Of a stretch of DNA of 64,000 nt, positions 30,568 through 51,171 are shown piece by piece (within the stretch, counting starts at the first letter, position 1; every line of letters starts with the position of its first letter). The position numbers were made by a program, and so were the translations under genes. Source of the stretch: an uncultured Candidatus Saccharibacteria bacterium (GTDB lineage Bacteria; Patescibacteriota; Minisyncoccia; Minisyncoccales; JANBVM01); NCBI GenBank assembly GCA_964493485.1, contig CAZBMQ010000003.1:8468-72467 (forward strand). The letters are read 5' to 3'. The notes under the pieces are model-generated. The model searched no databases. It was not told where the DNA came from and was given only the letters and a program-made list of their open reading frames with translations.

Positions 30568-31158
30568 TTAATACAAAACATCAAGGTTTCTTTGAGACAC
30601 GGTGGTCTGAAGTTTCACAGCCGGAGAATTGGAAACCCCTCTTTTTTCAATCTCAAAAGAAAGTGTGACTCTTGGCTGATTATCATCATCTTGGTTCTCT
30701 CCATAAATCCTAAATTCAAGCTGCTTTACCTCCAAGTCGTCTGAAGTCAAAAACAAAATTTCTGAACCCCTTTCTTCTTTTATCCTTCCATTCTCTAAAT
30801 AAAAAGAATGACACTGTTCGTTATGGTCTTTAAAGTTTATTCTATGATTAGAATCTTCTAATTCATAATTCACATTGTCTCCAGAAAGACAACTTACTCC
30901 ATCTAAATCATCTTTCAACGCCATTCTTAAAGACCGACTCATATATTCTGCAACATAGGAAGCATTATCAGTAATTTCTCTAAGAATGAGGGCTCTGTTT
31001 TGTCCTTTTAAAGAAGAGACAAAAATGCCGGTTGGAGCAGCAACCAAAATCGCAAATATGGTGACAGCTACTATAAGCTCCACTAAGGTGTATCCTTTTG
31101 TTTTATTTAAACCTTCTGTTAACTCTTTGTTATGTTTATTTTTTGTATTATCTCTCAT
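30568..31158 (-). CDS. Prepilin-type (type IV pilin-like) minor pilin
   Basis: KGYTLVELIVAVTIFAIL, a class III signal with G|Y cleavage site and Glu+5. Confidence 0.7.
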   Translation of the reverse strand: MRDNTKNKHNKELTEGLNKTKGYTLVELIVAVTIFAILVAAPTGIFVSSLKGQNRALILREITDNASYVAEYMSRSLRMALKDDLDGVSCLSGDNVNYELEDSNHRINFKDHNEQCHSFYLENGRIKEERGSEILFLTSDDLEVKQLEFRIYGENQDDDNQPRVTLSFEIEKRGVSNSPAVKLQTTVSQRNLDVLY

Positions 31159-31687
31159 ACCAATTTGATAAATCTTCTACTACTTCTATGCTATGACTCC
31201 TTTCTCTCTCCTGCCATTCTACTATTACTTTCACTTCCATTTTATCAGACCCTTTTGGGGTAATAATTATTTTTCTTTTGAACTTTGTAGGTGTACCAGA
31301 GTCATAGCTGTAGAATCCATTTGTGTCAATATTAAGATATCTAAGATTGGAAGAATTACAATTTGAAACATTTGTCAAAGAAGTATAGATCTTATAGTCT
31401 CCCTCACAACAATTTGGAGATTGACAATTAGTAAGACCATCGTCCCAAGATACAGAGCTGGATCTTGACTCAAGCCAGTTGCTATCTCTGATATTTCTTA
31501 CTATTTCTATTCCTTCTTGAGCTAAATAAGCAGCAGTCACTTTAAGTTCAACCATTGAGGCGCCGGAAAGACTCTGACGGAGCAAAGCAAAAGCGCCTCC
31601 TATTCCTACAGTAAGAATAAAAATAGCAGTAATTACTTCCAAAAGAGTAAATCCTAACTTTTCTTTTTTGGGTAAGTATTCATTCAT
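31148..31687 (-). CDS. Prepilin-type minor pilin
   Basis: MNEYLPKKEKLGFTLLEVITAIFILTVG. The ATG at 31687 is preferred over the overlapping ORF-track start at 31738. Confidence 0.7.
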   Translation of the reverse strand: MNEYLPKKEKLGFTLLEVITAIFILTVGIGGAFALLRQSLSGASMVELKVTAAYLAQEGIEIVRNIRDSNWLESRSSSVSWDDGLTNCQSPNCCEGDYKIYTSLTNVSNCNSSNLRYLNIDTNGFYSYDSGTPTKFKRKIIITPKGSDKMEVKVIVEWQERERSHSIEVVEDLSNWYER

Positions 31688-31724
31688 TTTTTGCTCTTTG
31701 ATTATTATATAAAAAATACAACTT

Positions 31725-32300
31725 TTAATCGATATCAATTAAGCCTGCTTTATTTATAGTAATAGTTCTGGTCTTTGAGTAATCTGTTTCTAAAGCAAAT
31801 GTAATCTTTGTCTCTGTACCATTGTCTGACTGAATCCTTTTTATTTTTATCACGGGGTCTGGAGGCCTGAAATTGATAGAAATCTGATTAGAATCTATAG
31901 AATCCATCTTTATATCTATAATCACCACCCCCTTTTCTAATTCTATTGTTTCTATCTCCTCTCCTGCGGTATAAATCTCATCTCCGTTCTCATCTGCATA
32001 CAAAATATAAGATGTATTATTGGGAGATGTATCTCTGAAATAAATCCCATAGCCCGGGGGAACTCCCCCTCCACATTCTTGGCATTCCATACCTGACATA
32101 GTTTTCTCTTGAGCAACCCTTATATCTTGAGAAACCTGGTGAACTGCTCTGTTTAATGAAAATTCTCTTTCTCCCATTCTATAGCTTGCCAGTACAAAAG
32201 TAGTCAAAATAATAATCATTCCTGAGACAACCAAAAGCTCTACCAAAGTGAATCCTTTATATCTTCTTTTTAAATCATATTTTTTTATTAATTCAAACAT
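31725..32300 (-). CDS. Prepilin-type minor pilin (GspH/FimT-like)
   Basis: KGFTLVELLVVSGMIIILTTFVL. Confidence 0.7.
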   Translation of the reverse strand: MFELIKKYDLKRRYKGFTLVELLVVSGMIIILTTFVLASYRMGEREFSLNRAVHQVSQDIRVAQEKTMSGMECQECGGGVPPGYGIYFRDTSPNNTSYILYADENGDEIYTAGEEIETIELEKGVVIIDIKMDSIDSNQISINFRPPDPVIKIKRIQSDNGTETKITFALETDYSKTRTITINKAGLIDID

Positions 32301-32316
32301 TTACTTTTAAAATATA

Positions 32317-34845
32317 TTACGGAGAAATCTCACGCCATTGAGGAAGAGGAACTGTAACATACAACTTGTATGAAACCTGGTCTGATCTTCCATTTTGGTC
32401 AACAACTGAGAGGGTAACAAGACCTGAATTAGAGCTTAAAGCTTCAAATGTAGCTGAAGGATTTTGGGCGTTGCTTGTAGATGGAGTACCGTCTGTAAAT
32501 GTCCAGCTCCAAGAAGTAATAGGCCAGTAGCCGCCTGATGTGTTTTCAGAACCTGTGGAGGTGTCTTTGAAATACACCCTTGCTCCTTCTGATACCTTGA
32601 AACCATCACAGCTCTGCCAACCTGAGTCAGGTTTCAAGGAACATTCAAAGTCTGCGATGATGTCTTGGCTAACATAAAAATCATGAGTTGTGGCATCTGT
32701 CGAACCTGCTGTATCTTCAACCTCCAGTTCAGCATAATACCACTGACTGGCAGGCATATTGGCAGGTAAGGTTATATCACAAATTGCTTCATTTTGTCCT
32801 GAGGTCAACATATTATCTGTGCATACTGTATAATCCTCTTGATATGGGGTCCCTCCCTGATAAAAGATAGACCATGTAGAAGTGACAATATCGTTGTTAT
32901 CGTCTGGATCAAGATAGGATCTTTCATAACTATATGCTACTCCGCAGTTTGGACATTCAATATCAGAATTATAACTACCAGCTACAACATCAGGATAGCA
33001 TTCATTTTCATCTTGATATCTCACACATCCTACTGATACATTGCGGAATCCAAACAAAGCACTGCTGTCGCTGCCGGGATACTCAATATATATATCATAG
33101 TCCTTATCCATTGAAGAAGAACCAAAATATATATACACTGCTCCACAATCTGAACATTTTGCGTCAGAATAAGGAGCGCCTACCACCACATCATCATAGT
33201 TGTCTTTATTAATATCTTCTGCAAAAACTGCACTTCCAAAATCAATAAGATTTAAAAGAGAACCAGGTTCATTTCTTGGATATTCAAGATATACATCATA
33301 ATCGCTGTCCATTGAACTTCCTCCATAATATACATACACAGCTCCACAATAAGTGCATTTGACATCAGACCAATTGGCGCCAGAAATCACATCATCATAG
33401 CCATCATTATTTACATCTCCTGCAGCAACTGAAAAACCCAAATGAGCAATATCACTTCCTGGATATCTTAAATAAACATCATAATTGCCATCCATCGAAG
33501 AAGAACCATAATAAACAAATACAGCTCCACCGTCACTACACTCATAATCAGAAAGAGAAGCTCCCACTATTGCATCATCATAACCATCATTATTTACATC
33601 TCCTGCAGCAGCAGCTTCTCCCAATCTCGCAGTTGAATCATTCCAAGGATATTGAAGATATACATCAGAGGTAGCTGTGGCTGAAAGAAAAGCAGAGCCG
33701 AAATAAATATAAGCTGCACCACAGTCAGTGCACTTTGTATCATCAGTAAACGCTGTAACTATCACATCGTCAAAATTGTCATTATTAAAATCGCCAAAAT
33801 ACACTGATTTACCAAAATTTCCTATTAAAGAATCACTGTCTGTTCTTGAATACTCAAGATACACATCATAATCGCCATCCATTGGATTGCCTCCATAAAA
33901 AATATAAGCTGCCCCGCAATCAGTGCATTTTGCGTCAGATTTAGGAGCCCCAACAACTACATCATCATAGCCATCATTATTAATATCTCCACCTGAAAAC
34001 ACTATATAACCAAATTCTGAACCAGCATCATTTTTAGGATATTTAAGATATAGGTCTGGACTAGAAGTAGAGGGCATTGAATTAGAGCCATAAAAAACAT
34101 ATACAGCTCCGCTATCTGTGTAATCTGCATCAGCATAAGGAGCACCTACAATAATATCTTTGTAACCATCATTATTCAGATCTCCCGTAGCAGATACAGC
34201 AAGTCCATACTGAGAATTATCTGTCAAGGGATATTTAAGGTAGATATTGTGGACAGAATAAAAATCAGTAGATTGGTTTATTAAATTAAAAATACAGTCT
34301 TTATTGTATGTTCCCCATACACCGTTGCAAGCAGCGCCTTGACATAAAGAACCATCACAGGAAAAAGCAGCTGTGGGAGGAGTATTTTCTGGAGCTCCTC
34401 CTCCTTCACTTACATCAACTTCTTTAGCACAATTAGCCGGGCAGTTTCCCGGATCACCTGACCAATTTCCATCATTATCCTGTACCCTTAATTTGGCACA
34501 AAAAGTCCCTGTAGTAGTATAAGTATGTTTTACAGTATCGCTAGTGGTTGTTATTTTTGGAGAACCATCTCCAAAATCAAATTCATACTGAGTTATTGTG
34601 CCATCAGTATCATGACCTGACCCTGTAAATGTAACCTGTAATGGAGGCAAACCGTTAGCAGGAGTTCTTGATAAAGAATCGCAAACAGGAGGAATAGTAT
34701 ATCCTACTGTTACCTTTACATAATCTGTCGCTAAATCATAATCTATTGATATTACGGCTTTGACAGCAAAGCTCTTTAATAGAAAACTACCTATTATTAA
34801 CAAGAAGATGCTCCATATTAAATTCTTTGATTTCTTAAAAAACAT
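32317..34845 (-). CDS. Giant secreted surface protein: N-terminal PKD domain, ~7 FG-GAP/integrin-alpha-like repeats, C-terminal PKD module
   Basis: Signal/TM N-terminus. PKD motif (VTFTGSGHDTDGTITQYEFDFGDGS). Repeated units (DLNNDGYKDIIVGAP, DINNDGYDDVVVGAP, DVNNDGYDDAIVGAS, ...). Its C-terminal 103 aa are identical to those of the protein at 40717..42531. Confidence 0.7.
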   Translation of the reverse strand: MFFKKSKNLIWSIFLLIIGSFLLKSFAVKAVISIDYDLATDYVKVTVGYTIPPVCDSLSRTPANGLPPLQVTFTGSGHDTDGTITQYEFDFGDGSPKITTTSDTVKHTYTTTGTFCAKLRVQDNDGNWSGDPGNCPANCAKEVDVSEGGGAPENTPPTAAFSCDGSLCQGAACNGVWGTYNKDCIFNLINQSTDFYSVHNIYLKYPLTDNSQYGLAVSATGDLNNDGYKDIIVGAPYADADYTDSGAVYVFYGSNSMPSTSSPDLYLKYPKNDAGSEFGYIVFSGGDINNDGYDDVVVGAPKSDAKCTDCGAAYIFYGGNPMDGDYDVYLEYSRTDSDSLIGNFGKSVYFGDFNNDNFDDVIVTAFTDDTKCTDCGAAYIYFGSAFLSATATSDVYLQYPWNDSTARLGEAAAAGDVNNDGYDDAIVGASLSDYECSDGGAVFVYYGSSSMDGNYDVYLRYPGSDIAHLGFSVAAGDVNNDGYDDVISGANWSDVKCTYCGAVYVYYGGSSMDSDYDVYLEYPRNEPGSLLNLIDFGSAVFAEDINKDNYDDVVVGAPYSDAKCSDCGAVYIYFGSSSMDKDYDIYIEYPGSDSSALFGFRNVSVGCVRYQDENECYPDVVAGSYNSDIECPNCGVAYSYERSYLDPDDNNDIVTSTWSIFYQGGTPYQEDYTVCTDNMLTSGQNEAICDITLPANMPASQWYYAELEVEDTAGSTDATTHDFYVSQDIIADFECSLKPDSGWQSCDGFKVSEGARVYFKDTSTGSENTSGGYWPITSWSWTFTDGTPSTSNAQNPSATFEALSSNSGLVTLSVVDQNGRSDQVSYKLYVTVPLPQWREISP
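32359..32667. repeat. 309-bp perfect direct repeat, copy A (encodes the shared C-terminal PKD module)
   Basis: Checked line by line against 40762..41070 at a constant offset of 8403 nt. No mismatches or indels were seen. Confidence 0.85.
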
Positions 34846-34852
34846 AAAATCT

Positions 34853-35641
34853 CTATTTACATGTATTGGTATATTGAATAATAGCTCCTAATGCCAGCAC
34901 AGTGGTATGAGGACTATCAGCCCAACTTCCATTTTCTTTTTGACATTTTAAAATATTTTCAATCCATTCTTGCTTCACAGGAAACCCCGCATATCCAAGA
35001 AATAAAGCTCTTTCACAATATACATCTAAAAAAGCTATATTATTGCAAAAAATAGAAAAATCTTCTTGTTTCGTATCTTTATCCTCAGCTGCTATCAATT
35101 CTTTGGCTAATTCTTTCATTAATGGATCTAAAGTATTTCCATAGCATCCTTTTTCTTTCATTAAAGACAATGCGTGTAAAAGATGAATTGAATTATATCT
35201 TACATCCCTTTCTACTTCATTTATATCCTTTAACACTTCATTATAATCAATATTTTTGCAACACATAGCTTTTATTGTAATTCGTTCAAGTAAAGAAAAG
35301 AAGGATATTTCTTTTAGTAGCTCAGAGATATTCTGATTTCTACAAGAAGAATTGTAAAGCTCAAAAAAAAGCTTTTTGTTGCTATTTTCCTCTGCACTCT
35401 TTATCTTCCAAAGCTCCTCTAGTCTCTCATCATGGCATATTTTATTAAGTTTTTGAATTAAAAGAATTATTCCTACATCAAACTTTTTTTCTGTAGTTAA
35501 AAGAAAAACTATTCCTTTCTCAATTGCGCTGCTGCTTTGTCTCTTAAAGGGTTCCGAATAATTAATTACCAACCAAAACAATATTCCTAATATTAATAAT
35601 GGGCCTAAAAGTAAAAGTATGTGTTTTATTGTAAACTTCAT
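34853..35641 (-). CDS. Hypothetical membrane-anchored protein (262 aa) with a weak prenyltransferase/squalene-cyclase-like repeat at the C-terminus
   Basis: N-terminal TM. The C-terminal segment QKENGSWADSPHTTVLALGAI resembles a Q..dGgW...T..AL repeat. The match is weak. Confidence 0.3.
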   Translation of the reverse strand: MKFTIKHILLLLGPLLILGILFWLVINYSEPFKRQSSSAIEKGIVFLLTTEKKFDVGIILLIQKLNKICHDERLEELWKIKSAEENSNKKLFFELYNSSCRNQNISELLKEISFFSLLERITIKAMCCKNIDYNEVLKDINEVERDVRYNSIHLLHALSLMKEKGCYGNTLDPLMKELAKELIAAEDKDTKQEDFSIFCNNIAFLDVYCERALFLGYAGFPVKQEWIENILKCQKENGSWADSPHTTVLALGAIIQYTNTCK

Positions 35642-35655
35642 TTTAATTTATTCTA

Positions 35656-37986
35656 CTAATACTGACATACACAATATCTCCAATAACCTGAGACAGATGC
35701 GTTACAACTTTGAGAGTATGAGCTATCTCTAGCCCAACATTCTTTGTTTCCCCATGCATCAGCTTTTACCATAGGCTGAGCTGCATTAACACCATTAGAA
35801 TGACAAAGAGAACATCCTCCTAGATTACAACAAACTGTACAATTATTATCGTCATTCCAATTAGCTTGTACACATCCACCGTAATTAGAACAAAGTCCTT
35901 CACATGTTCCTCCTTGAGCTGACATTCGCCAACAAGCCTTTCCTCCCTGCCCTGCACAGCCGTTACATCCATCATCATAGAAATACACATTCCCTTCACA
36001 TACCCTACAAACTCCCTGATAACATCTTGCATTACTTCCTGTGCACATATAATAATTACTTCCCCAATTTGAAGTAACATCAACATCGCATCTCCCAGAA
36101 CCACCACATGTTTTACATACTGCACATCCTATCTCAATGGTAGTTATACAACCATCTCCCACCTTATATGCTGTCTCTGCAATTGCAGTACCAGGAAATG
36201 CATACCAATCGCTATAACGAACTCTTCCTGCATCAGTACACTTACTGCTACCCGCCAAACAACCTCTATAATATCTTTGAGCTGAACAAGCATAGGTAAC
36301 ACAATCTATTGTTCTATCACAATAAATGCTTGATGAAGGATTTATTTCGCTCCCAGCACTACACACTTTTCCGGATGTCGAAAGATAGGCAATACTATCT
36401 CCTACATCAGGTCCTGCTGCACCTCCTGAACCGTCGCAAGCAAGTTTATCTCTTTTCTTTTGGCAAGCGCCAACACAACCATTGAATGAAGATAAACTAG
36501 AATAATAAGTATCTGAACCTGTAGCTTCCTGTCCCGCTCCTATACAAACATATCCTGCGGCAATATTTACAACATCATCCTCTCCTGTATCATATGCACA
36601 GTTATGAGAAGCATCACACCTTAATTTGTCTCTTTGCTTCTGACAGGTATAAGGAGAACCCTCACCTGTGCACGCGTTGAAATCAGAATATCCGCATACT
36701 GCAATGCCTGTTGTACCACAAGTATCAGTAAGTGTATATCCTTCTTGAGCATAAACTGCACGTGAATAAGCATCAGTATGGTCTGTGGGCGCTCTACAGC
36801 TTCCAGAACCGTTACAAGAGATAAACCACTCAGTAGCTGAACAATCCCCATCATCACAATCTTCATCATAATTACAATAAGCAGAAGGAGAAACTGGTGT
36901 CTCCTGTCCTGCCCCTGTACATACATAGCCTGACCTCACATAGGTTGTGGCACCTGAGGATTCGCAAGAACCAGCTCCATCACAATTACCAGTAGTCTGT
37001 CCAATTGTACATTCATTAATACAACTCATAGTAATGTCGCATTGGTTTCCGGGATCAGTACCGGCTGTCGCATATCCACAAGAACCATTTTGACAAGCGC
37101 GACAGATACCTGTACATCCTTCATGCTGTTCATTATTAGGCCAATTTTCACAACTCCCACTTACGCAATGAGTACAATCCCCTGTACAATTGACTCCTTC
37201 GTCCCCTGTATAAGGCACTGAGCTAGTGCTCACTCCATCACAATAATAACAAACACTACTCACCTCTATGTTTTGGTTCACTGGCCGCACGGTACAATAT
37301 CCATCTGAACCAATACCACTACAGGCTTCACAGTCTCCTGTACAAGGACCATCACAACACACCCCATCTACACAATATCCGGAAATACATTCACCCGAAG
37401 AACCGCAAGACTCTCCCAATGAAAGACCCGGCCTAGGACTAGAAACCATAATAGTTAAATGTTTGGTAGTAGGATCAATATAATCTGCAATATTGGTTGT
37501 AATATTGCCTAATAAAGTATCATCTATCTGCTGAGTAAAATCTTTACTATCCAATTCTTCCCAATTGTTTGTATTCCTGTTCCAAATATAAAAATAAGTA
37601 ACTGCATTCTGATCAATCCCTCCATATCCCTCCCATTCAAAATCTAACGAAGTAATATTATTTATGTTCTCGTTTATGGTAAATGTAAAGATATGAGTAT
37701 TCCATTGATTTGGTGGAGGAAGCAAAAGCTCCCATCTTGAATCATCGCTTGAAGAGATAGCATTATACTCTCCAGAGAGAGCTTCTGTATCATAGTCACT
37801 TGGATCTGATGGCTGACTTCCTTGTTTTCTATAAGCCCATTTGTCTACTCCAGCATTTGAAGAAAAATCATACATGCTTGTGGCTGCAAAAACCCTAAAA
37901 GAAAATCCAAATATGCCTAGAACAAATAAGACAAGAATTAGATAAATAATAACAATGTCAGTTTTGAATCTCAGAAATTTAAACAT
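35656..37986 (-). CDS. Large secreted cysteine-rich protein (776 aa) with internally duplicated Cys-rich modules
   Basis: Signal peptide (FGFSFRVFA). A Cys-free domain of ~150 aa. The remainder is packed with CxxC/CxxxC spacings (e.g. CTGDCEACSG, CTGDCTHCVSGSC, CTGICRACQNGSC). Internal duplication: CQKQRDKLRCD... vs CQKKRDKLACD.... Confidence 0.6.
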   Translation of the reverse strand: MFKFLRFKTDIVIIYLILVLFVLGIFGFSFRVFAATSMYDFSSNAGVDKWAYRKQGSQPSDPSDYDTEALSGEYNAISSSDDSRWELLLPPPNQWNTHIFTFTINENINNITSLDFEWEGYGGIDQNAVTYFYIWNRNTNNWEELDSKDFTQQIDDTLLGNITTNIADYIDPTTKHLTIMVSSPRPGLSLGESCGSSGECISGYCVDGVCCDGPCTGDCEACSGIGSDGYCTVRPVNQNIEVSSVCYYCDGVSTSSVPYTGDEGVNCTGDCTHCVSGSCENWPNNEQHEGCTGICRACQNGSCGYATAGTDPGNQCDITMSCINECTIGQTTGNCDGAGSCESSGATTYVRSGYVCTGAGQETPVSPSAYCNYDEDCDDGDCSATEWFISCNGSGSCRAPTDHTDAYSRAVYAQEGYTLTDTCGTTGIAVCGYSDFNACTGEGSPYTCQKQRDKLRCDASHNCAYDTGEDDVVNIAAGYVCIGAGQEATGSDTYYSSLSSFNGCVGACQKKRDKLACDGSGGAAGPDVGDSIAYLSTSGKVCSAGSEINPSSSIYCDRTIDCVTYACSAQRYYRGCLAGSSKCTDAGRVRYSDWYAFPGTAIAETAYKVGDGCITTIEIGCAVCKTCGGSGRCDVDVTSNWGSNYYMCTGSNARCYQGVCRVCEGNVYFYDDGCNGCAGQGGKACWRMSAQGGTCEGLCSNYGGCVQANWNDDNNCTVCCNLGGCSLCHSNGVNAAQPMVKADAWGNKECWARDSSYSQSCNASVSGYWRYCVCQY

Positions 37987-40716: not shown

Positions 40717-42531
40717 TTAATACGGAGAAGCTTCCTGCCATTGAGGAAAAGATTTAGTAATATACAACTTGTATGAAACCTGGTCTGATCTTCCATTTTG
40801 GTCAACAACTGAGAGGGTAACAAGACCTGAATTAGAGCTTAAAGCTTCAAATGTAGCTGAAGGATTTTGGGCGTTGCTTGTAGATGGAGTACCGTCTGTA
40901 AATGTCCAGCTCCAAGAAGTAATAGGCCAGTAGCCGCCTGATGTGTTTTCAGAACCTGTGGAGGTGTCTTTGAAATACACCCTTGCTCCTTCTGATACCT
41001 TGAAACCATCACAGCTCTGCCAACCTGAGTCAGGTTTCAAGGAACATTCAAAGTCTGCGATGATGTCTTGTAAAATCTTAAAAGATTGATTGACAATATC
41101 TACTTCTCCAGCATAATCTTCTACATGCAATTCTGCATTATAGTCTCCTGAAGGAAAGTATGAAGGCATTGTCCAATTGCAAAGAGGATCAACAGTACAA
41201 TGTAGGGTGTCATTTGTCTCTCCTGTAATAATCCAGGTAGAGCTTGCAATATCTCCCTGACCATCAGGATCAGTAGAATCGTTTTTTAAACAAAAGAGAG
41301 AACGGGTATATCCAGTACAAGAACCCGGAGACTGACTGCAGCCTTCTGGATAACAAGTTATATCAGCTGTTGGGGGATTATTACCTCCTTCACCCTCAGT
41401 AACAATAATCTGTTGGGTACAGGTATCAGGACAATCTCCTGGAGTTTCAGACCAATCACCATAATCGTCTTGAACCCTTAATTTCGCGCAATAAGTCCCA
41501 GTGGCATTGTATGTATATTGAGCAGTATTTTCAGATGTAGTGATTTTATTAAAATTCCAACTACAGAGACCACAGGGACTGCAACTCTCCTCTGAATCGA
41601 GAGAAGAACAGTCTCTTGATGGACCCGTGCAAAATCCTGACACCTTGTCCCAAGAACATCCACAAGCCTCACATGCTGCTTGAGTTAAAGCTAAACCGCA
41701 AACAATACTTCCCTCACATGCTCCCTCGCCAGTATTAAACTCATATTGAACAATTGTTCCTGTTTCATCTTGATCATGGCCTGAACCAGTAAAATTAACC
41801 GTTAAAGGAGCGTCACCTGAAGAAGGATTGGCTATTAAAGAATCACACACCGGAGTAAGGTTAGTTGAGGGAAGATTCCATTCGGCAATTTTATAATTAG
41901 AAGTAGTACATTCCTCTTCATTTAAACAATTGAAGGAAATCCACCCAAAATCATCTGACCATGCCCAACCTTCGAATTCACCTGTATCTCTATTAATCAC
42001 AAGATTAGGATCTGCATTTAAGCTTATCCATCCATCCCATTCTCCCGCATCGGGATTTAAAGGACCACTGCACCCTGATTGAAAAACATAGCAAGCTCTT
42101 GCCCAACCACCAACAGGTTCTTCCGGGTCTGTCTTCATGGAGCTGGTATAAGCCTGACAGGGCGAAGAAGGACATCCTGCCAACTCAGACTCATTAAATG
42201 TTATCCATCCAATATTATCTGACCAGGCATAACCCTGTAAAAGACCAGGACAATATGGAGGAATCCCACCTAATGCTTCGTAGTCAATTTTTACTCCATA
42301 CTCAACAGAAGAACCATCTGTTTCACTGCTAAAGCTTATCCATCCAATATTGTCTGACCAAGCCCATCCATGAACCTCAACCAAACCTACACATTCTTCG
42401 CTTGGAGGAGGACCGGGAGGACCCAAGTCTCCTTTTGTTCTTGTTGCCGTTAAAATTAGTGCTCCGCAGACAACTAACAGAAATATTTTAATAAGTTGTC
42501 TTTTCTTAATAAAAGAAGAATTTTTAAACAT
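40717..42531 (-). CDS. Giant secreted surface protein: WSDxxGWISF repeat region, split PKD domain with a Cys-rich insertion, C-terminal PKD module
   Basis: Signal peptide. Three repeats (GWAWSDNIGWISF, YAWSDNIGWITF, GWAWSDDFGWISFNC). PKD blocks paralogous to 32317..34845 (GTYCAKLRVQDDYGDWSETPGDCP vs GTFCAKLRVQDNDGNWSGDPGNCP). Identical C-terminal 103 aa. Confidence 0.65.
   Translation of the reverse strand: MFKNSSFIKKRQLIKIFLLVVCGALILTATRTKGDLGPPGPPPSEECVGLVEVHGWAWSDNIGWISFSSETDGSSVEYGVKIDYEALGGIPPYCPGLLQGYAWSDNIGWITFNESELAGCPSSPCQAYTSSMKTDPEEPVGGWARACYVFQSGCSGPLNPDAGEWDGWISLNADPNLVINRDTGEFEGWAWSDDFGWISFNCLNEEECTTSNYKIAEWNLPSTNLTPVCDSLIANPSSGDAPLTVNFTGSGHDQDETGTIVQYEFNTGEGACEGSIVCGLALTQAACEACGCSWDKVSGFCTGPSRDCSSLDSEESCSPCGLCSWNFNKITTSENTAQYTYNATGTYCAKLRVQDDYGDWSETPGDCPDTCTQQIIVTEGEGGNNPPTADITCYPEGCSQSPGSCTGYTRSLFCLKNDSTDPDGQGDIASSTWIITGETNDTLHCTVDPLCNWTMPSYFPSGDYNAELHVEDYAGEVDIVNQSFKILQDIIADFECSLKPDSGWQSCDGFKVSEGARVYFKDTSTGSENTSGGYWPITSWSWTFTDGTPSTSNAQNPSATFEALSSNSGLVTLSVVDQNGRSDQVSYKLYITKSFPQWQEASPY
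40762..41070. repeat. 309-bp perfect direct repeat, copy B
   Basis: Identical to 32359..32667. Confidence 0.85.
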
Positions 42532-42541
42532 CTTAAATTAA

Positions 42542-43351
42542 TTATAACAAAAGATTAAAGTAAAGATTAATTAATTTATCTCCATAGAAAAAAGCCAAAA
42601 AAGTTCCTGTGATTAAAAATGGAGCAAACGGAATTTCTGATTTTAATTTCTTTTTACCAAGAAAAATTAATATTATACCTATTATAGCCCCTATAAAAAA
42701 ACTTAAAAAAATAGCCACCGCAATCCTTGGAAACCCCAGAAAAATACCCATAAAAAAGGCTAATTTCACATCACCCATACCCATTCCTTTTCCTCGAGAA
42801 ATAAAAACTATTGCCAAAAAAAATAGACTTGCTCCAATACCTGAGAAAAGAATATTAAATATATTGTATTTAAAAAAAGGAGAAAAGAAAATCCTTGAAA
42901 TTAAATACCACACAGCAGTCGTCAAAACAGCGGGATAGATTACTCTATCTGGAATAATATAATACTTTACATCATAAACAAAAATGACAATCAGAAAACA
43001 ACAAATAATAAATAAAAAAAAGAGGTCTAAAACCCAAAAAAGAACAGGGATAGAAAATAATGATTCTATGTTTTTTAAAAAAATAAAAGAAAATAAAAGC
43101 CCTGTTGATAACTCCACTAAGGGATATTGAATAGAGATAGGCTTTTGGCAATACCTACATCTTCCTTTTAAGATAATAAAACTTAAAATAGGAATCAAAT
43201 CAATGGCATGTAAGGTATGACCGCAATAAGGGCAGTAAGATCTTTTGGATAGAAAGCTTTGTTTTTTAGAAAGTCTATATATAACGCAGTTCAAAAAAGA
43301 ACCAATTATCAATCCAAATATAAAAATGAAAAATGAAAAGAAAATATTCAT
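42542..43351 (-). CDS. pilD: Prepilin peptidase (A24 family, PilD)
   Basis: N-terminal Zn-finger CPYCGHTL...CRYCQKPI. Catalytic-Asp region [16 protein letters not shown]. Polytopic, 269 aa. Confidence 0.85.
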
Positions 43352-43390
43352 TTTAAAATATCTACTATCTCAATTTCTTTTTATAAAAAA

Positions 43391-43924
43391 CTAAAAACAG
43401 GTACAGCTACCCATTACACTGGGTTCTTCTTCTAACTCACACTTTTTTGTTCCTTTATGGGAAGCACAAAAATATACCTTATTACCAGGAGTTGCAGGTT
43501 CTTCTTCTAATATAGCGTAAGCGCAAAACCAATCTCCAGCAGAAAGACTGCCAAGATCCGGATCACTGCATAATATGTTGAAGCGGTTATCTACCCATAC
43601 ATAATCAGTACATGCCTCTCCCGGACATTGCGGATCATGCAAGGGGCTCAGATAACGATAAATCGCAGGAACTCCTCCCTCTTCTGGGGGAGCGGCAGTA
43701 AAATATCTATCGTTAAAGCCAAAGTATATTCCTTGAGCTGAAACCAATTGTCTCATATCTGACTGTCTCATCGCATCTCTTGCGCTGCTTCTTGCTCCTT
43801 TTAAATATGTAAAAACCACAGTAGAAAGTGTTCCAATAATAGCAATAACAACCAATAGCTCGATCAAAGTAAAACCTTTAAGTTTTTTAATCCTAAAGTG
43901 TTTGCTTCTTAATACTTGCATCAT
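43391..43924 (-). CDS. Type IV pilin (major pilin paralog 3)
   Basis: [22 protein letters not shown] class III signal. C-terminal Cys pairs consistent with a D-region disulfide. Confidence 0.8.
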   Translation of the reverse strand: MMQVLRSKHFRIKKLKGFTLIELLVVIAIIGTLSTVVFTYLKGARSSARDAMRQSDMRQLVSAQGIYFGFNDRYFTAAPPEEGGVPAIYRYLSPLHDPQCPGEACTDYVWVDNRFNILCSDPDLGSLSAGDWFCAYAILEEEPATPGNKVYFCASHKGTKKCELEEEPSVMGSCTCF

Positions 43925-44029
43925 ATAATTTAAAAAATTAATAAGTTTTAAAAATAGGCCTTTATTGTGTTTATTATATTATAATTTAAAAAAACAAGCG
44001 AGAAAAAAACTGAAAAACTATATCTTAAC

Positions 44030-44557
44030 TTACATTGCAAATTTAATACAACTACTTAATGTTGGAAGATGGCCTGCTGTATATGTCTCATCAGAACATA
44101 CTTCCTTAACCCCTCTATTTGAACTTACAAAATACCGGTGGGAAGTAGGACATCCCTCAAGATTTTCTAATTCTGCAAAAACACAAAACACATCACTTGT
44201 TGTAGCAGTTTCTGTATTGTCTAACCATATATAATCTATATGATTGGAACAGACTCCATCAGGACATAGTGGATCATGTAAGCCTATCAGATAGTTTCCA
44301 ATAGGAGGAGTTCCATCTGTTTTCTCAGTATTCTCAAAATATGTCTCATTGTCTATATAATACATTTCCTGCGCTGTAGCCAATTGTCTCATATCTGTCA
44401 TTCTATTTGTATCTCTTGCTCTCCTTCTTGCCCCTCCCAAAGACACCAAAACAATTCCAGATAAGGTTCCAATAATAGCAATAACAACCAATAGCTCAAT
44501 CAAAGTAAAACCTTTTTCTTTTTTAAGCCTTAAAAATCTCCATTTCAAGGTCTCCAT
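44030..44557 (-). CDS. Type IV pilin (major pilin paralog 2)
   Basis: [30 protein letters not shown]. The N-terminal coding DNA is identical to paralog 1 over 102 bp. Confidence 0.8.
   Translation of the reverse strand: METLKWRFLRLKKEKGFTLIELLVVIAIIGTLSGIVLVSLGGARRRARDTNRMTDMRQLATAQEMYYIDNETYFENTEKTDGTPPIGNYLIGLHDPLCPDGVCSNHIDYIWLDNTETATTSDVFCVFAELENLEGCPTSHRYFVSSNRGVKEVCSDETYTAGHLPTLSSCIKFAM
44427..44528. repeat. 102-bp perfect repeat (pilin 5' coding segment), copy 1
   Basis: Identical to 45103..45204 by direct reading. A near-identical shorter segment lies in the third pilin at ~43836-43885. Confidence 0.8.
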
Positions 44558-44625
44558 AAATAAAAATACATATAAAACTTATTTTATTAATTATACTAAA
44601 AAGTACGGAGAAAAATAAAGTTAAA

Positions 44626-44656
44626 TTGGCGGGTTTTTGCCCGCCAATTTTTCTCT
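44626..44656 (-). terminator. Putative terminator hairpin (ttggcggg-tttttg-cccgccaa) between pilin genes
   Basis: 8-bp GC-rich stem with A/T-rich flanks on both strands. Downstream of the pilin at 44700..45206. Confidence 0.35.
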
Positions 44657-44699
44657 CCATGATAACTGATTTTCAAAACTATCTACCTCCTAATCTAAA

Positions 44700-45206
44700 C
44701 TACAGATTAAAGTCACGACAATTTGCTAATGTGGGGCAATTTGCAGTATCATCCCGTGCAGTATCACTACAAACTTCTTGGACTCCTTTATCAGAAGCAA
44801 CATAGTATCGGTAGTTTGTAGTACAGCTTCCAAGGTTTTCTAATCTAGCAAAGGCGCAAAAACTAGTTGTAGCGGTAGTACCGTTGTTAACCCACACATA
44901 ATCTACATGAGTAGTACAAGTACCACCAGGACATTGTGGATCATGTAAAGCAACTAAATAATTTCCAATTGCAGGAATACCTGCTGTACAACTGCCTGGA
45001 GTTCCATTAGCATAATATCCTTCATGATCTCCATAATACATCTCTTGAGCAGTAGTTACTTGTCTCATATCAGACTGTCTGTTTGCATCCCTTGCCTTAC
45101 TCCTTGCCCCTCCCAAAGACACCAAAACAATTCCAGATAAGGTTCCAATAATAGCAATAACAACCAATAGCTCAATCAAAGTAAAACCTTTTTCTTTTTT
45201 AAGCAT
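44700..45206 (-). CDS. Type IV pilin (major pilin paralog 1)
   Basis: [50 protein letters not shown]-terminal Cys residues. Confidence 0.8.
45103..45204. repeat. 102-bp perfect repeat (pilin 5' coding segment), copy 2
   Basis: Identical to 44427..44528. Confidence 0.8.
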
Positions 45207-45305
45207 GATAAATTATTAGTATAATAATTTCATAATTAATGTTTTACATTTTCGACCTTTTATCTTTTTTATCTATTTTTTATTTTAGCATAATTTTTAA
45301 AAAAC

Positions 45306-46508
45306 CTAAATAGACATCATCTGATACATAGGCATTAGTATTGAAAACATTAATCCTCCTACTATCAAACCTAAAGAAACAATCAATAAAGGCTCCAATA
45401 TTCCCAACATAGCAACCACACCTTCCTCCACCTCTCTCCTGTAAAAAAGAGCTATCTTCATTAAGCTGGTGTCTAATGTTCCTGTCTTTTCACCTACCAA
45501 TGCCATCTGAACAAACACAGGAGGAAAAATTTCTGGATAAAGAGCCAAAATAGAAGAAATAGGCACACCCCTTCTTACTTCATCTTTGGTCTTTAGAATA
45601 GCTTTTTTGTACATAGAATTTCCAACCACATCAGCTGATAACTCTAAGGCCTGGGCTATCATTATTCCTCCTGAAATCAAAGTGGAAAGATTCTCAGCTA
45701 ATCGGGCTAAATACATTGTTTTCATCACTGTACCTATAACTGGAATTTTAAGAAGAATCCTGTCTATAACATCTTTTCCCTGCTCTGTTTTATAAATTCT
45801 ATAAAGAACAAACAAAAAGACAAAAACTCCCAATATAAAAAAGAAGCCGTAGTCTTTTAAAAAACCTGCAGCTTTCAATATCTTCATTGTAAATTCCGGC
45901 ACCTCTGCTCCGCTTTCTTCAAGCACTGTCTGAAATTGGGGGATTACAGTATAAATCATCAAAATTATAACAAAGCTCACCAGCATAAGAATAAAAATTG
46001 GATATACCATAGCTCCCTTTATCTTTGAAGCCAACTGATATTGTCTTTCTAAATAGTCTGCCAAGTAATTTAATGACTCTGCCAATTTTCCTGAAGCTTC
46101 ACCTGATTTTATCATAGAGATATATAGGTCAGAAAAAATCTCAGGATAGCGGGAAAGAGCCTTAGACAAAGCTGTTCCTCCTTCAACATCTTCTGAAATA
46201 TTTAGAATCTTCTCTCTAAAATCTGCATTTTTTGTCTGACTTGATAAAACCCTCAAACTTTCCACTAAAGGAACCTTTGCATTAAACATCATTGCCAATT
46301 GTCGTGAAAAGATAACAATATCTTTTTGAGATATTCTACTGAAAAACTCTAACTTCTTTGCATAAAATGGAAGTTTTTCTTCCTCTAAGTATGTAACATA
46401 AAATCCATGCTTCTGTAAAAGTGAAAGAGCTGCATCTTTTGAAGAAGCTTCTACAATTCCAGCCCGAACATCTCCTTCTTTAGTTCTGGCTTGATAATTA
46501 AATTTCAT
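45306..46508 (-). CDS. pilC: Type IV pilus inner-membrane platform protein PilC (GspF family)
   Basis: Two GspF repeats, 3 TM segments, 400 aa, adjacent to pilT/pilB. Confidence 0.9.
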   Translation of the reverse strand: MKFNYQARTKEGDVRAGIVEASSKDAALSLLQKHGFYVTYLEEEKLPFYAKKLEFFSRISQKDIVIFSRQLAMMFNAKVPLVESLRVLSSQTKNADFREKILNISEDVEGGTALSKALSRYPEIFSDLYISMIKSGEASGKLAESLNYLADYLERQYQLASKIKGAMVYPIFILMLVSFVIILMIYTVIPQFQTVLEESGAEVPEFTMKILKAAGFLKDYGFFFILGVFVFLFVLYRIYKTEQGKDVIDRILLKIPVIGTVMKTMYLARLAENLSTLISGGIMIAQALELSADVVGNSMYKKAILKTKDEVRRGVPISSILALYPEIFPPVFVQMALVGEKTGTLDTSLMKIALFYRREVEEGVVAMLGILEPLLIVSLGLIVGGLMFSILMPMYQMMSI

Positions 46509-46522
46509 TTATAAACAAAAGT

Positions 46523-47593
46523 TTAATGCCGAATGAGTATTCTTAATTCATTAGGAGACAGAGAATAAGAAAGAGCTGTTTCTAAAGAAACCTCTTTTCT
46601 TTTAACTAAATCTGCTAAAGACCGATTAAGAGAAATCATACCTAACTCAAGATTGGTTTCAATTACCATTGGAATCTCATGGATTTTATTTTCCCTGATT
46701 AAGTTTGCTACAGCTGGAGTAGCAATCATTACCTCACATGCAGGAATCAATCCGCCTTTGATTCTGGGTACTAGTCTTTGAGACACAACCCCTAAAAGAG
46801 AACCTGAAAGCTGGGCCCTTATTTGGTCCTGCTGTTGAGAAGGAAAAGAGTCTACAATTCTGTGAATCGTTTGAGCTGCGGAGTTAGTGTGTAATGTGGC
46901 AAACACCAAATGACCTGTCTCTGCAGCAGTAATAGCTGTAGCCATTGTTTCTGGATCTCTCATCTCTCCTACCATAATCACATCTGGATCCTGCCTAAAG
47001 GTTGAACGGAGTGCAGTAGAAAAGCTCATTGTATCCTGACCCACCTCTCTCTGGTCTATAATTGCTTTGTCTGGAGTAAACACATATTCAATAGGATCCT
47101 CAATCGTCACAATATGGTCAGTCCTTGTATGATTAATTTCATCAATCAATGCCGCCAAAGTAGTAGATTTTCCTTGAGATGAAGGTCCGCATATTAATAC
47201 AAAACCTTGGGTAGGTTTGGTAAATTCATACAACACAGGGGGGAGATTAAGTTCTGTAATAGTGCGAATTTTAGCAGGAATTAATCTCAAAGCGCAAGAA
47301 ATGTATCCTTTTTGAAAAAATATATTTACCCTAAACCGCGCTTCTTCTCCGAATTTATAAGAAAAATCTATCTCCTTCTCCTTCAAAAATCTCTCTTTTT
47401 GCGCTACATTCATTAATGTAAAAGCTAAATTCTCTGTATCTTCTGGAGAAAACTTCTCTTCTTTTACCAATGGAACAAGCTCTCCTGCAATCCTCAATAC
47501 TGGAGGATGTCCTACTGAAATATGCAAATCAGAAGCCTGTTCTTTTATGGTTAAGGCAAGCAATTTTCTAAGCTGACTCAAATAGTTTGGCAT
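46523..47593 (-). CDS. pilT: Type IV pilus retraction ATPase PilT
   Basis: LICGPSSQGKSTTLAALID (Walker A), DHIVTIEDPIEYVF, Asp and His boxes. 356 aa and no N-terminal GSPII_E_N domain, as expected for PilT rather than PilB. Confidence 0.85.
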   Translation of the reverse strand: MPNYLSQLRKLLALTIKEQASDLHISVGHPPVLRIAGELVPLVKEEKFSPEDTENLAFTLMNVAQKERFLKEKEIDFSYKFGEEARFRVNIFFQKGYISCALRLIPAKIRTITELNLPPVLYEFTKPTQGFVLICGPSSQGKSTTLAALIDEINHTRTDHIVTIEDPIEYVFTPDKAIIDQREVGQDTMSFSTALRSTFRQDPDVIMVGEMRDPETMATAITAAETGHLVFATLHTNSAAQTIHRIVDSFPSQQQDQIRAQLSGSLLGVVSQRLVPRIKGGLIPACEVMIATPAVANLIRENKIHEIPMVIETNLELGMISLNRSLADLVKRKEVSLETALSYSLSPNELRILIRH

Positions 47594-47620
47594 AAATTTA
47601 TCAAATTATTATTTTATAAT

Positions 47621-47989
47621 CTAATCTTTTAATACCTTTTTAATTTCATCTACCACCTCTGCTGGAGTATAATGGGCTTTGATAAAATATTTTACTACTC
47701 CCATTTCCAAGCCTTTCTCAACTTCCTCTTTCTGACCAAGATTAGAAAGAATAAAAACCTTTAAATCTTTTAACTTCTTGTCTTTTTCAATTTCTTTTAA
47801 AATCTGCCAACCATCAATATGAGGAAGAACAATATCCAATACCAATAAATCAAAATGTTTTTCCTTTAATTTTTTCAAACCTTCCAATCCATCAGTAGCA
47901 ACATCTACATCAAAACCCATTTCTTTCAATTTTGTGTGATAAATATCTACTAAAAATGGGTCGTCTTCAATTACTAAAATATGCTTCAT
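47621..47989 (-). CDS. Stand-alone CheY-like response-regulator receiver (PilH/PilG-like)
   Basis: MKHILVIEDDPFLVDIY...DLLVLDIVLPHIDGWQIL...KVFILSN; 122 aa, receiver domain only. Confidence 0.8.
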   Translation of the reverse strand: MKHILVIEDDPFLVDIYHTKLKEMGFDVDVATDGLEGLKKLKEKHFDLLVLDIVLPHIDGWQILKEIEKDKKLKDLKVFILSNLGQKEEVEKGLEMGVVKYFIKAHYTPAEVVDEIKKVLKD

Positions 47990-48028
47990 ATTAATAGAAA
48001 GAAGTTAATTATTAATTATATTTAATTA

Positions 48029-49750: not shown

Positions 49751-49765
49751 AATTTTATTTTTTAA

Positions 49766-50062
49766 TTAAGGCTGCTGGGTTGGTAGATAAGGAACAAAAG
49801 GGTTTTCTCTTCCTAATTCACCTTCAAAATCAGGTATCTTTTCAATTGGCTGAAGTTCTTTTAATAATGGATTGTCCAATACCTCAAAATCTATTTTAAT
49901 TTTTTTAAAATGTTGCTGAATAAACACTTCTTCTGTGGAAGTCTCCTGCTGCATATAAAAATACCACACTCCTATAAATATACCAGCCGCAACGAGAACT
50001 CCTAAAAATATAAAAATCAATCTCTTCTGTCTCTTTATTTGCTCTTGAAATGTAATTGCCAT
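49766..50062 (-). CDS. Small single-TM protein in the pilMNO-pilB operon (possible PilP-like component)
   Basis: 98 aa, one TM (LIFIFLGVLVAAGIFIGVWYF). The call rests on operon position only. Confidence 0.3.
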   Translation of the reverse strand: MAITFQEQIKRQKRLIFIFLGVLVAAGIFIGVWYFYMQQETSTEEVFIQQHFKKIKIDFEVLDNPLLKELQPIEKIPDFEGELGRENPFVPYLPTQQP

Positions 50063-50079
50063 AGTTATAAAAATTGAGC

Positions 50080-50619
50080 TTAGTAGATTGGGTTTTCATT
50101 TATAAAATAAACCTTTATTATAAGATCAAATCCAAAAATTTTTTCCTTTTCTGAAAAAGTAAGATCAATATTTGTAATCTCAATTAATCTGTCTGACTTT
50201 TCCACTAGGGAAACAAATTGTTTAAAACCCTGATAATCTCCTTTTAGAGCAACTCCTATTTGGGCGACCCCAATATTTTTCCCCATTTCAGAAGAGGGAA
50301 AAACCTCTGTTCTTATCTGGTCTAATACAAGCCCGGATTGCGAAGCTGCTTTTTGTAAAAAATTTAAAAGCTCTGATAAACGAGGACTTTTAGGCAAAGC
50401 GGCCTCTATCTTTTCTAAAGAATCTTTTCTCTTTTTCAATTCTTCTGATATTCGCTGAACCTCCTTTAAATAATTCTCTTGTGATAATAATTCTCCTTCC
50501 TTTACTAATATCTTCTGTCTAATATCATTAAGTTCTCTGTATTTTGGAAGTACTGCCACAAATACAAGCAACAGAATAAAGGAAAAAACTATAAAACTAT
50601 AGAATGAATAATTTTTCAT
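50080..50619 (-). CDS. PilO-like type IV pilus alignment protein
   Basis: Short N-terminus, single TM, coiled-coil, periplasmic-type domain. Called by position after pilM/pilN. Confidence 0.5.
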   Translation of the reverse strand: MKNYSFYSFIVFSFILLLVFVAVLPKYRELNDIRQKILVKEGELLSQENYLKEVQRISEELKKRKDSLEKIEAALPKSPRLSELLNFLQKAASQSGLVLDQIRTEVFPSSEMGKNIGVAQIGVALKGDYQGFKQFVSLVEKSDRLIEITNIDLTFSEKEKIFGFDLIIKVYFINENPIY

Positions 50620-50620
50620 A

Positions 50621-51148: not shown

Positions 51149-51171
51149 AATATTATTATGTGGTTATATAA

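Follow-up and report, generated by a model that had tools for sequence, protein, structure and literature searches.

The minus strand of the 64,000-nucleotide (nt) stretch analyzed here (contig CAZBMQ010000003.1 of assembly GCA_964493485.1, positions 8,468 to 72,467; hereafter the window) encodes a secreted-looking protein of 842 amino acids (aa) in which PKD domains are combined with an FG-GAP propeller of the integrin α type. The open reading frame for this protein (hereafter the target) was recovered as listed in the original prediction, which had been made from the letters of the DNA alone. From the N- to the C-terminus the target consists of a signal-like segment, PKD1, the N-terminal half of PKD2, the FG-GAP propeller, the C-terminal half of PKD2, PKD3, and an 11-residue tail. 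The coordinates of these segments and of the surrounding genes are collected in Table 1.

Table 1. Features of the target gene and its surroundings in the window. The caret marks the presumed cleavage site of a leader; pLDDT is the predicted local distance difference test score of AlphaFold2 (AF2) models, given per block.
Feature	Position	Strand	Evidence or remarks
Target, whole gene	32317..34845	(-)	842-aa secreted PKD/FG-GAP protein; stop codon 32317-32319; ATG start
N-terminal signal-like segment, aa 1-27	34765..34845	(-)	MFFKKSKNLIWSIFLLIIGSFLLKSFA^VKA; type I (Sec) look, not a prepilin leader
PKD1, aa ~50-145	34411..34698	(-)	Pfam PKD_4, ColH PKD match, block pLDDT 82-92
N-terminal half of PKD2-like domain, aa ~153-194	34264..34389	(-)	Ends ...FNLINQSTD; aligns to paralog aa 386-421 and P0093; block pLDDT 68-89
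Inserted seven-bladed FG-GAP (integrin-α-type) propeller, aa 199-646	32908..34251	(-)	Pfam, motif scan, AF2, Foldseek, phmmer
C-terminal half of PKD2-like domain, aa 647-725	32671..32907	(-)	Starts PDDNNDIVTSTWSIFYQ; family/paralog alignment; block pLDDT 66-95
PKD3-like domain, aa 726-831	32353..32670	(-)	Block pLDDT 78-97, all blocks but one ≥93
Extreme C-terminal tail, aa 832-842	32320..32352	(-)	TVPLPQWREISP; family-wide LPxWxE..P motif; proposed docking peptide
Minor pilin 1, 191 aa	31725..32300	(-)	..RRYKG^FTLVE; N_methyl match; weak ComGD/GspH similarity
Minor pilin 2	31148..31738	(-)	..KEKLG^FTLLE; N_methyl match; weak PilV similarity; likely true start ATG 31687
Minor pilin 3, 196 aa	30568..31158	(-)	..NKTKG^YTLVE; N_methyl match; weak GspJ/ComGE similarity
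Minor pilin 4, 133 aa	30153..30554	(-)	..NQKG^LSIML; leader with Gly at -1, no Glu at +5; AFYAADSGVE motif
Two upstream genes in the same tight run	34853..37986	(-)	776-aa protein with 70 Cys and 262-aa membrane-anchored protein
604-aa paralog	40717..42531	(-)	Signal peptide, GWAWSxNIGWISF repeats, PKD1, PKD2, PKD3, tail; no propeller; directly downstream of PilD
Type IV pilus machinery	42542..52251	(-)	PilD, three pilins, PilC, PilT, receiver domain, PilB, PilO, PilN-like, PilM (Pfam)

The FG-GAP propeller with DxNxDG-type Ca2+ loops that had been proposed for this protein was borne out by profile, motif, and structure searches. FG-GAP (PF01839) matches the target in Pfam over six stretches with an E value of 1.9e-41 and 139.7 bits (cut-off 22.1), and FG-GAP_3 and FG-GAP_2 likewise exceed their cut-offs. 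Six D-x-N-x-D-(G/N)-(Y/F)-x-D loops were located by a motif scan at residues 222, 287, 352, 416, 477, and 544, and the sixth position of the loop is Gly in four blades and Asn in two. Hairpin loops of the Ca2+-binding type are present in blades 1-6, and the binding of Ca2+ is predicted from the motif. The seventh blade (residues 586-646) is degenerate. The earlier count of about seven repeats stands for the blades but not for the canonical Ca2+ loops, and the loops are spaced 61-67 aa apart instead of the 55-60 aa first estimated. The repeats are not of low complexity, as blades 1-6 are mutually 39-64% identical in protein sequence and six copies of a 119-nt unit with 61-71% identity are found in the DNA.

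A CxxCG motif appears in the 2-3 loop of blades 2, 3, 5, 6, and 7, about 20 residues past each Ca2+ loop. CxxCG loops are absent from all 119 other FG-GAP homologues retrieved. From strand topology, not from coordinates, the Ca2+ loops (1-2 loops) are expected on one face of the propeller, and the other face, to which ligand binds in integrins, would carry the CxxCG loops (2-3 loops).

The structure of the target was modeled twice with AF2. In run 1, for which the alignment was rich in FG-GAP homologues, the region of residues ~200-640 was predicted with pLDDT values mostly of 80-95, and 28 strands across residues 216-640 make up seven four-stranded blades, as anticipated by the original prediction; residues 46-197 were left unmodeled. 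In run 2, for which trimmed propeller homologues and family C-terminal modules were supplied as input, the block values of PKD1, both halves of PKD2, and PKD3 were raised to those listed in Table 1, and blade 7 is weak. The top 50 Foldseek matches in the PDB are integrin α subunits (best E = 1.2e-20). Propeller-only chains were aligned with template modeling scores (TMt) of 0.70-0.73 (3zdz_A, TMt 0.73, root-mean-square deviation 4.9 Å), and full-length integrin chains with deviations of 17-30 Å. With phmmer against the PDB sequences, integrin αV was matched on the Ca2+-loop blades (E = 1.1e-17), and the integrin match is confined to the propeller region.

A homologue search with the full-length target returned generic FG-GAP proteins that cover the propeller only, the closest of which are 35-46% identical over ~50% of the query; no second protein with the architecture of the target was retrieved. 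The closest propeller relative (P0017, 45-46% identity) was considered as a clue to a donor and set aside as uninformative, being located on a 2.5-kb contig with a GC (guanine plus cytosine) content of 0.47 and fragmented FG-GAP frames. The GC content of the propeller, 0.37 compared with 0.40 for the remainder of the gene, gives no signal of a foreign origin.

Among the PKD families of Pfam (PF18911/PF00801), PKD_4 also exceeds its threshold, on residues 64-128 of the target (E = 1.8e-18, 66.8 bits, cut-off 27), and the PKD domain of ColH matches residues 61-129 in the phmmer search of the PDB (E = 1.3e-7). PKD2 and PKD3 on their own are sub-threshold (PKD_4, 22.7 bits versus 27) and are named PKD-like because they are nevertheless modeled as β-sandwiches with block pLDDT values of 66-97. 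The propeller had originally been described as flanked by an N-terminal and a C-terminal PKD domain. PKD domains are indeed present; the propeller, however, is nested within the PKD2-like domain, and the part C-terminal to it contains two PKD-like domains.

The nesting is apparent from alignments with two relatives. Residues 97-194 of the target align to residues 329-421 of the 604-aa paralog encoded in the same window, and residues 646-842 align to residues 421-603. Since the flanks align to contiguous paralog residues (329-603), about 450 aa have been inserted at one site. In the Nealsonbacteria protein P0093 the sequence there is ...FYFLNDSTDPNSTNPPDDNNDIVKSTWSIFYQ..., and in the target it is ...FNLINQSTD[458 aa]IVTSTWSIFYQ.... 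The corresponding loop of PKD2 is 4-12 aa long in ~25 distinct family members and 458 aa long in the target, the sole exception. On these alignments the propeller is a 458-aa insertion in a loop of the middle of the three PKD-like domains, and the alignments and confidence values suggest that the split PKD2 domain closes upon itself. The pLDDT of the tail is low to moderate in both monomer models, and its packing is not confident.

The C-terminal part of the target defines a protein family, which was collected using the propeller-deleted target as a query, a scan of reference genomes, a scan of metagenomes, and HMMER, run exhaustively with the final 197 aa as the query. The defining module comprises ~190 aa of PKD2 and PKD3, with ..ADFxCS.. 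and a terminal LPxWxE..P, and the target qualifies as a member. A single full-length match to this module was found in about 60 clusters (50% identity), nearly all of which have it at the extreme C-terminus. Wherever the genomes are named, they are assigned to Candidatus Nealsonbacteria. Family proteins encoded beside the minor-pilin block in other genomes are 45-58% identical to the target in the C-terminal module, and lengths in the family range from fragments and 150 aa up to 2115 aa. The N-terminal regions differ fully and include Flg_new_2, CARDB, extra PKD domains, and Cys-rich stretches. By inspection, most of the full-length members have a type I signal-like start that ends in (K or E)-A^G and is followed by GWAWSxNIGWISF repeats. 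FG-GAP motifs were found in no family protein or locus translation examined, except the target. One candidate, the generic PKD protein P0126, was excluded because its context is unrelated.

The tail of the family conforms to (P)(L/F)P-x-W-x-E-x-x-P and is near-invariant. In 47 members that were selected by this very motif, so that the measure is circular, conservation of the tail is 3.21 bits per position compared with 2.39 for the body of PKD3, and the protein ends 5-6 residues past the Trp in 45 of the 47 (5 residues in the target). The 13 single-stretch matches missed by the motif filter were examined for this reason. The same motif is present in seven of them (two at internal positions, four with a hydrophobic extension of 18-25 residues, and one Val variant), and close variants such as LPIWFPVPPR are present in the other six. 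The extensions that follow LPxWxE..PF are hydrophobic or amphipathic (P0220, P0271, P0281, and P0293), and two very long proteins carry the family module internally (P0173 and P0183; see also loci L011 and L033).

The family gene is linked to minor pilin genes. In the complete Nealsonbacteria genomes CP179889.1 and CP179887.1, in the contig JAUUXB010000007.1 of a metagenome-assembled genome, and in many metagenome contigs, it is followed by four small genes (~200, 195, 200, and 115 aa), LigA, and FtsW. In most of the loci with enough flanking sequence, the family gene is directly upstream of the same four minor pilins. Orthologues of the four pilins of the window were identified by tblastn in the same order in eight loci with identities of 33-59%, and LigA is 64-73% identical across the same loci.

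Gene spacing in the window is tight, with 7 nt upstream and 16 nt downstream of the target, and the pilin genes overlap. The distance from the TAA of the target to the ATG of the first prepilin gene (32300), previously stated as 17 nt, is thus corrected to 16 nt. Where three minor pilins had been counted, four pilin-like genes were found, three of which match N_methyl and the fourth of which has no Glu at +5. In all 20 of the 20 orthologues of minor pilin 4, the leader has Gly at -1, Glu at +5 is missing, and the motif AFYAAD(S/A)G(I/V)E is present. No name was returned for minor pilin 4 by Pfam (E ≤ 5), NCBIfam, or the homologue search; the pattern of leader and motif suggests an apical subunit of the PilX/GspK type. 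LigA, a SEDS protein, RpoB, and RpoC come after the four minor pilins. Complete type IV pilus machinery is encoded on the minus strand of the window, and the order of genes after PilD is the 604-aa paralog, a 339-aa protein, a plus-strand gene of the UbiA type, a 776-aa protein, a 262-aa protein, and the target.

Two start codons can be considered for the target. Translation from the ATG at 34845 yields a basic n-region that is typical for signal peptides. The alternative TTG at 34803, located 14 codons inside the ATG, is preceded at 8 nt by GGAG and is the start chosen in public gene calls (P0001). An identical protein is found as an 828-aa product in two public records, on a 62.6-kb JGI contig (P0001) and on a 111-kb NCBI/ENA contig (P0300), the latter of which holds the target together with the window form of the 604-aa paralog. 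The two records possibly derive from the same reads and may not be independent assemblies.

The N-terminal helix of the AF2 model spans residues 3-23 only. As judged by inspection, the signal segment may be cleaved by signal peptidase I, and small residues at -3 and -1 (SFA^V in the target and KA^G in relatives) agree with this. No N_methyl match was obtained for the target in Pfam, whereas the three downstream genes match, and the target has neither the class III signal peptide nor the long α1 helix of type IV (modular) pilins. The C-terminus contains no transmembrane segment or basic tail as required for sortase and exosortase signals. The PF18962 domain of the type IX secretion system (T9SS), present in many propeller homologues, was not detected in the target, and no catalytic domain was found with Pfam or NCBIfam. 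Pilin names from NCBIfam on this locus are weak and sub-threshold, and its zinc-ribbon matches on the CxxCG motifs are spurious. Promoter-like sites occur at chance level (34 found versus 32.8 expected), and the few terminator-like sites fall within coding sequence.

The 604-aa paralog shares PKD1, PKD2, PKD3, and the tail with the target. Over a 314-nt patch within PKD3 (32354-32667 versus 40757-41070) the two genes are 100% identical. The flanks of the patch have diverged, with the PKD2 halves being ~40-50% identical and the last 12 codons different. P0121, which is the paralog as found in another assembly, departs from the window copy at only two residues, both of which are within the patch. 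The near-identity of the PKD3 patches is real, and the perfect identity is explained either by gene conversion of very recent date or by a small collapse in the assembly. A homogenized PKD3 agrees with both proteins having to fit a single set of minor pilins, which is suggestive only. The GWAWSxNIGWISF repeats of the paralog are located at residues ~50-205 (~41900-42400; DNA repeat family at 41931-42372) and have no Pfam family. In PKD1 of the paralog a Cys-rich loop insertion of ~57 aa (residues 272-328, 41548-41718) is found where the target reads FDFGDGS; it is the second loop insertion among these PKD domains.

The organization of the family was compared with that of known pilus systems. 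PilY1 carries a signal peptide of type I and a conserved C-terminal domain, and its gene is clustered with those of four minor pilins, of which PilX is without Glu5 (PMC7541494). PilY1 and the four minor pilins form a complex that primes pilus assembly and ends at the tip (PMC7541494). In a 2026 study the last ~10 residues of PilC/PilY1 were found to dock on PilK by β-strand addition, and the non-homologous but syntenic MshQ was predicted to dock like PilC/PilY1 (PMC13533445). The target resembles PilC/PilY1 of Neisseria, Pseudomonas, and Myxococcus in what looks by inspection like a Sec-type signal, in a variable N-terminal part and a conserved C-terminal part, and in the clustering of its gene with those of four core minor pilins, including one without Glu5. 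Further points of likeness are a short conserved peptide at the extreme C-terminus and a seven-bladed Ca2+-associated β-propeller (PMC7541494, PMC13533445). The PilY1 domain PF05567, however, was not detected by Pfam in the whole target at E ≤ 0.01 or in its C-terminal module at E ≤ 5, and PilY1 is not among the top 50 Foldseek matches of the target in the PDB. The conserved module of the target is PKD2-PKD3 with the tail, and the propeller forms its variable head; PilY1 differs in that its propeller serves as the conserved docking domain. The target gene is upstream of the pilins and that of PilY1 downstream. Unlike the PilC/PilY1 systems, the host is a member of the Patescibacteria, and the window showed no secretin gene. 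The target is not a PilY1 homologue.

MshQ of the MSHA pilus of Vibrio cholerae is likewise a large non-PilY1 protein that is encoded beside pilIJK homologues and predicted to dock by its C-terminus on the PilK homologue (PMC13533445). The domain content of the target is different, and the likeness lies in syntenic logic, with no relationship by sequence expected. PilX2 of the Saccharibacterium Nanosynbacter lyticus TM7x is encoded in a minor-pilin locus, contains a seven-bladed RCC1 propeller but no PilD signal, and is needed for efficient host binding (PMC11623550). The pattern reported for its loss is that piliation persists while attachment to the host is abolished (PMC11623550). It shares with the target the Patescibacteria host, the minor-pilin locus, the missing canonical PilD signal, and the seven blades. 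The propeller of PilX2 is, however, of the RCC1 type, C-terminal, and carried on a pilin-like scaffold, whereas that of the target is of the FG-GAP type, nested in a PKD domain, and not preceded by a pilin-like N-terminus. In Streptococcus sanguinis, PilB and PilC demonstrate an adhesive module on a monoderm type IV pilus (PMC8179133); unlike the target, their modules are grafted on true pilins with a class III signal peptide.

Likeness to the integrin α subunit (PF01839) consists of seven FG-GAP blades with DxDxDGxxD-type Ca2+ loops and of the best PDB match by both structure and sequence. In contrast to integrin α, the target lacks thigh and calf domains as well as a C-terminal transmembrane segment and shows no sign of a β-subunit partner. 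It has six Ca2+-loop motifs versus three or four in integrins, and its CxxCG loops are not seen in the 119 other FG-GAP homologues. The target is not an integrin. The closest propeller sequences are those of FG-GAP surface proteins from Ignavibacteria, Bacteroidota, and Calditrichia. These differ from the target in having multiple propellers, PF18962 of the T9SS in many cases, no PKD2-PKD3-tail module, and no reported pilus context. By analogy, the family fits the logic of PilY1, MshQ, and PilX2 point by point, PF05567 excepted.

From these comparisons the target is interpreted as a PilY1-like, pilus-borne adhesin of a Nealsonbacteria-like (Patescibacteria) cell, exported by the Sec pathway and not itself a pilin; a probability of about 0.5 is assigned to this reading. 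Comparative support for a tip adhesin is gained because the C-terminal module marks a family whose genes are directly upstream of the same four minor pilins, and because the layout of the family is PilY1-like, with a signal-like start, a variable N-terminal part, and a conserved C-terminal part with a near-invariant end peptide. Docking, tip location, and ligand are inferred as follows. After export, the conserved C-terminal module, and chiefly the terminal LPxWxE..P, would dock on the minor-pilin initiation complex in a manner analogous to the C-terminal β-strand addition of PilC/PilY1 onto PilK/PilX. The target would then be carried outward at the tip of the pilus, with the PKD domains as a stalk. 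The Ca2+-loaded propeller, presented from the loop of PKD2, would bind a ligand on the surface of the host cell, and its 2-3 and 4-1 loops, including the five CxxC loops, would be on the face used by integrins for ligand binding. The 604-aa paralog, which has no propeller, may compete for the same docking site, or alternate on it, to give tips with different heads.

A more tentative proposal joins these elements. PKD2-PKD3-LPxWxE would be a new docking device, unrelated to PilY1, that plugs an invariant end peptide into a minor pilin lacking Glu5, and would define a new family of tip adhesins with exchangeable heads on pili of the Nealsonbacteria type. In this genome, one copy would have gained a new head for host recognition when a Ca2+-dependent integrin-like propeller was inserted into a PKD loop. 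Its docking domain would be kept identical, by gene conversion, with the one in a differently headed paralog on the same set of minor pilins.

Several observations weigh against a tip adhesin. The case for an association with the pilus is indirect, the cleavage of the signal peptide was judged by eye, and the K-type assignment of minor pilin 4 is without support from a profile hidden Markov model. The tail is proline-rich (PLPxWxE.xP) and contains no obvious β-strand. Internal modules and hydrophobic extensions past the motif are ill-fitting for a strictly terminal docking peptide, so the binding partner of the tail may not be a minor pilin. The 348-aa type and the P0123 type, two minor sub-branches of the family, have the tail but are followed by small membrane proteins that are not pilins. 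The GWAWSxNIGWISF repeats typical of most members are missing from the target, which is derived and possibly divergent if these repeats matter for function. The FG-GAP insertion itself is found in one population only.

The alternative that survives best, although it is considered unlikely, is a cell-surface adhesin or a component of the surface layer (S-layer) that is co-expressed with the pilus and not carried on it. The target would be held by an uncleaved N-terminal signal-anchor, or by the C-terminal peptide on the wall or S-layer. Drawing the cell toward its host would be the task of the pilus, and close-range contact that of the target. The hydrophobic helix predicted at residues 3-23 could serve as such an anchor, its cleavage being judged by inspection only, but the small residues at -3 and -1 suit cleavage by signal peptidase I. 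Some branches of the family with the same tail are not beside pilin genes, and a few members add the hydrophobic C-terminal extension past the motif. Against this, adjacency to the block of four minor pilins is strict across genomes with only 45-58% identity in the C-terminal module, and the fixed distance of the motif from the C-terminus suits a terminal docking peptide. A further point against it is that the target has no transmembrane segment or basic tail for sortase or exosortase. In its favor, PKD/immunoglobulin (Ig)-like domains and FG-GAP repeats are common in ordinary surface proteins, and the closest relatives of the propeller are sorted by the T9SS. PKD proteins are also among the candidates listed for host adhesion in Patescibacteria (PMC10936435).

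It is improbable that the main role of the target is in pilus biogenesis, with the C-terminal module licensing or priming the minor-pilin complex or stopping retraction, and with the propeller as a lineage-specific decoration of little consequence. Such a role would account for family-wide conservation in the C-terminal module and not in any head domain, and the propeller is found in the target alone. Precedent is provided by the roles shown for the C-terminus of PilC/PilY1 and by the priming of extension by the complex of PilY1 and minor pilins (PMC7541494). A role in biogenesis is, however, compatible with the adhesin reading, as PilY1 does both, and a basal role could be filled by the propeller-less paralog of the window. 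The propeller, with 450 aa, six intact Ca2+-loop motifs, 39-64% identity between blades, and an open frame, looks selectively maintained.

A chimera of the assembly is very improbable. In this case the FG-GAP block or the identical PKD3 patch would be an artifact, and the real gene would be an ordinary PKD member of the family. The occurrence of the insertion in one population only would be accounted for, a short-read assembler could be misled by an exact 314-nt repeat at a distance of 8.4 kb, and P0121 differs from the paralog of the window only within the patch. Nevertheless, the insertion keeps the frame, its site coincides exactly with a surface loop, and neither half of PKD2 is disrupted; the GC content of the propeller (0.37) matches that of the gene and the locus. 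The identical 828-aa product is found on the 62.6-kb JGI contig and on the 111-kb NCBI/ENA contig with the paralog. No contaminating donor is evident, as the nearest FG-GAP relatives are 35-46% identical and none has CxxCG loops.

A secreted enzyme, or a polysaccharide- or mineral-binding protein that is unrelated to the pilus and adjacent to it by chance, is equally remote: the CxxCG loops gave weak zinc-ribbon-like matches in NCBIfam, and FG-GAP propellers and PKD domains are found in some glycan-active and matrix-binding proteins, but no catalytic domain was returned by Pfam or NCBIfam, and the adjacency to minor pilins is conserved throughout the family and is not a one-off.

A large part of bacterial diversity belongs to Patescibacteria, which live attached to other microbes and for which type IV pili are the best-supported attachment device. 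To our knowledge, the only member of this group with known host-recognizing molecules is one oral Saccharibacterium (PilX2). Attachment of Nealsonbacteria to methanogenic archaea has been described (10.1101/2022.04.20.488981). If the family is the counterpart of PilY1, it would offer a handle on host specificity in which the heads vary and the docking module is constant, as well as a clean natural case of a whole propeller grafted into the loop of an Ig-like domain. The rule that a C-terminal peptide licenses the tip complex would then be extended to a non-homologous protein in a deeply divergent lineage. For a protein that is only an ordinary surface protein, the outcome would be a routine annotation. 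That FG-GAP and PKD domains are common is already known, and PilY1 and PilX2 are earlier cases of non-pilin proteins with a propeller that are encoded at a minor-pilin locus. Neither the PKD2-PKD3-LPxWxE family nor its genetic link to minor pilins in pili of the Nealsonbacteria type appears to have been reported, no description having been found by a full-text literature search, and an integrin-type propeller nested in a PKD loop is apparently undescribed as well.

The genes between the target and the pilus machinery were also inspected. The 776-aa protein (35656-37986, minus strand) is secreted-looking, contains 70 cysteines, and has no Pfam or NCBIfam match. A homologue (48% identity over 336 aa) is encoded immediately upstream of the family gene in CP179887.1 (L010), close to the arrangement in the window. 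As judged from this gene order, the Cys-rich protein may belong to the same functional unit as the family gene. The 339-aa protein (39622-40641, minus strand) has an N-terminal transmembrane segment followed by AWTGPSQNPPGGNVAPPLN and no family match, and no homologue was found by tblastn in eight related loci. The minus-strand pilus cluster is broken by a UbiA-type prenyltransferase gene (38088-39614, plus strand), the product of which has a long membrane N-terminal extension. This gene and its neighbors are absent from the syntenic Nealsonbacteria locus L001.

Within the pilus machinery, a receiver-only response regulator (47621-47989, minus strand) is encoded between PilB and PilT, and a gene of the same size is found at the same position in the Nealsonbacteria locus L001. 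Three tandem paralogs that resemble major pilins (43391-45206, minus strand) are 168, 175, and 177 aa in length; their leaders and α1 regions are nearly identical, and each contains 6-8 cysteines.

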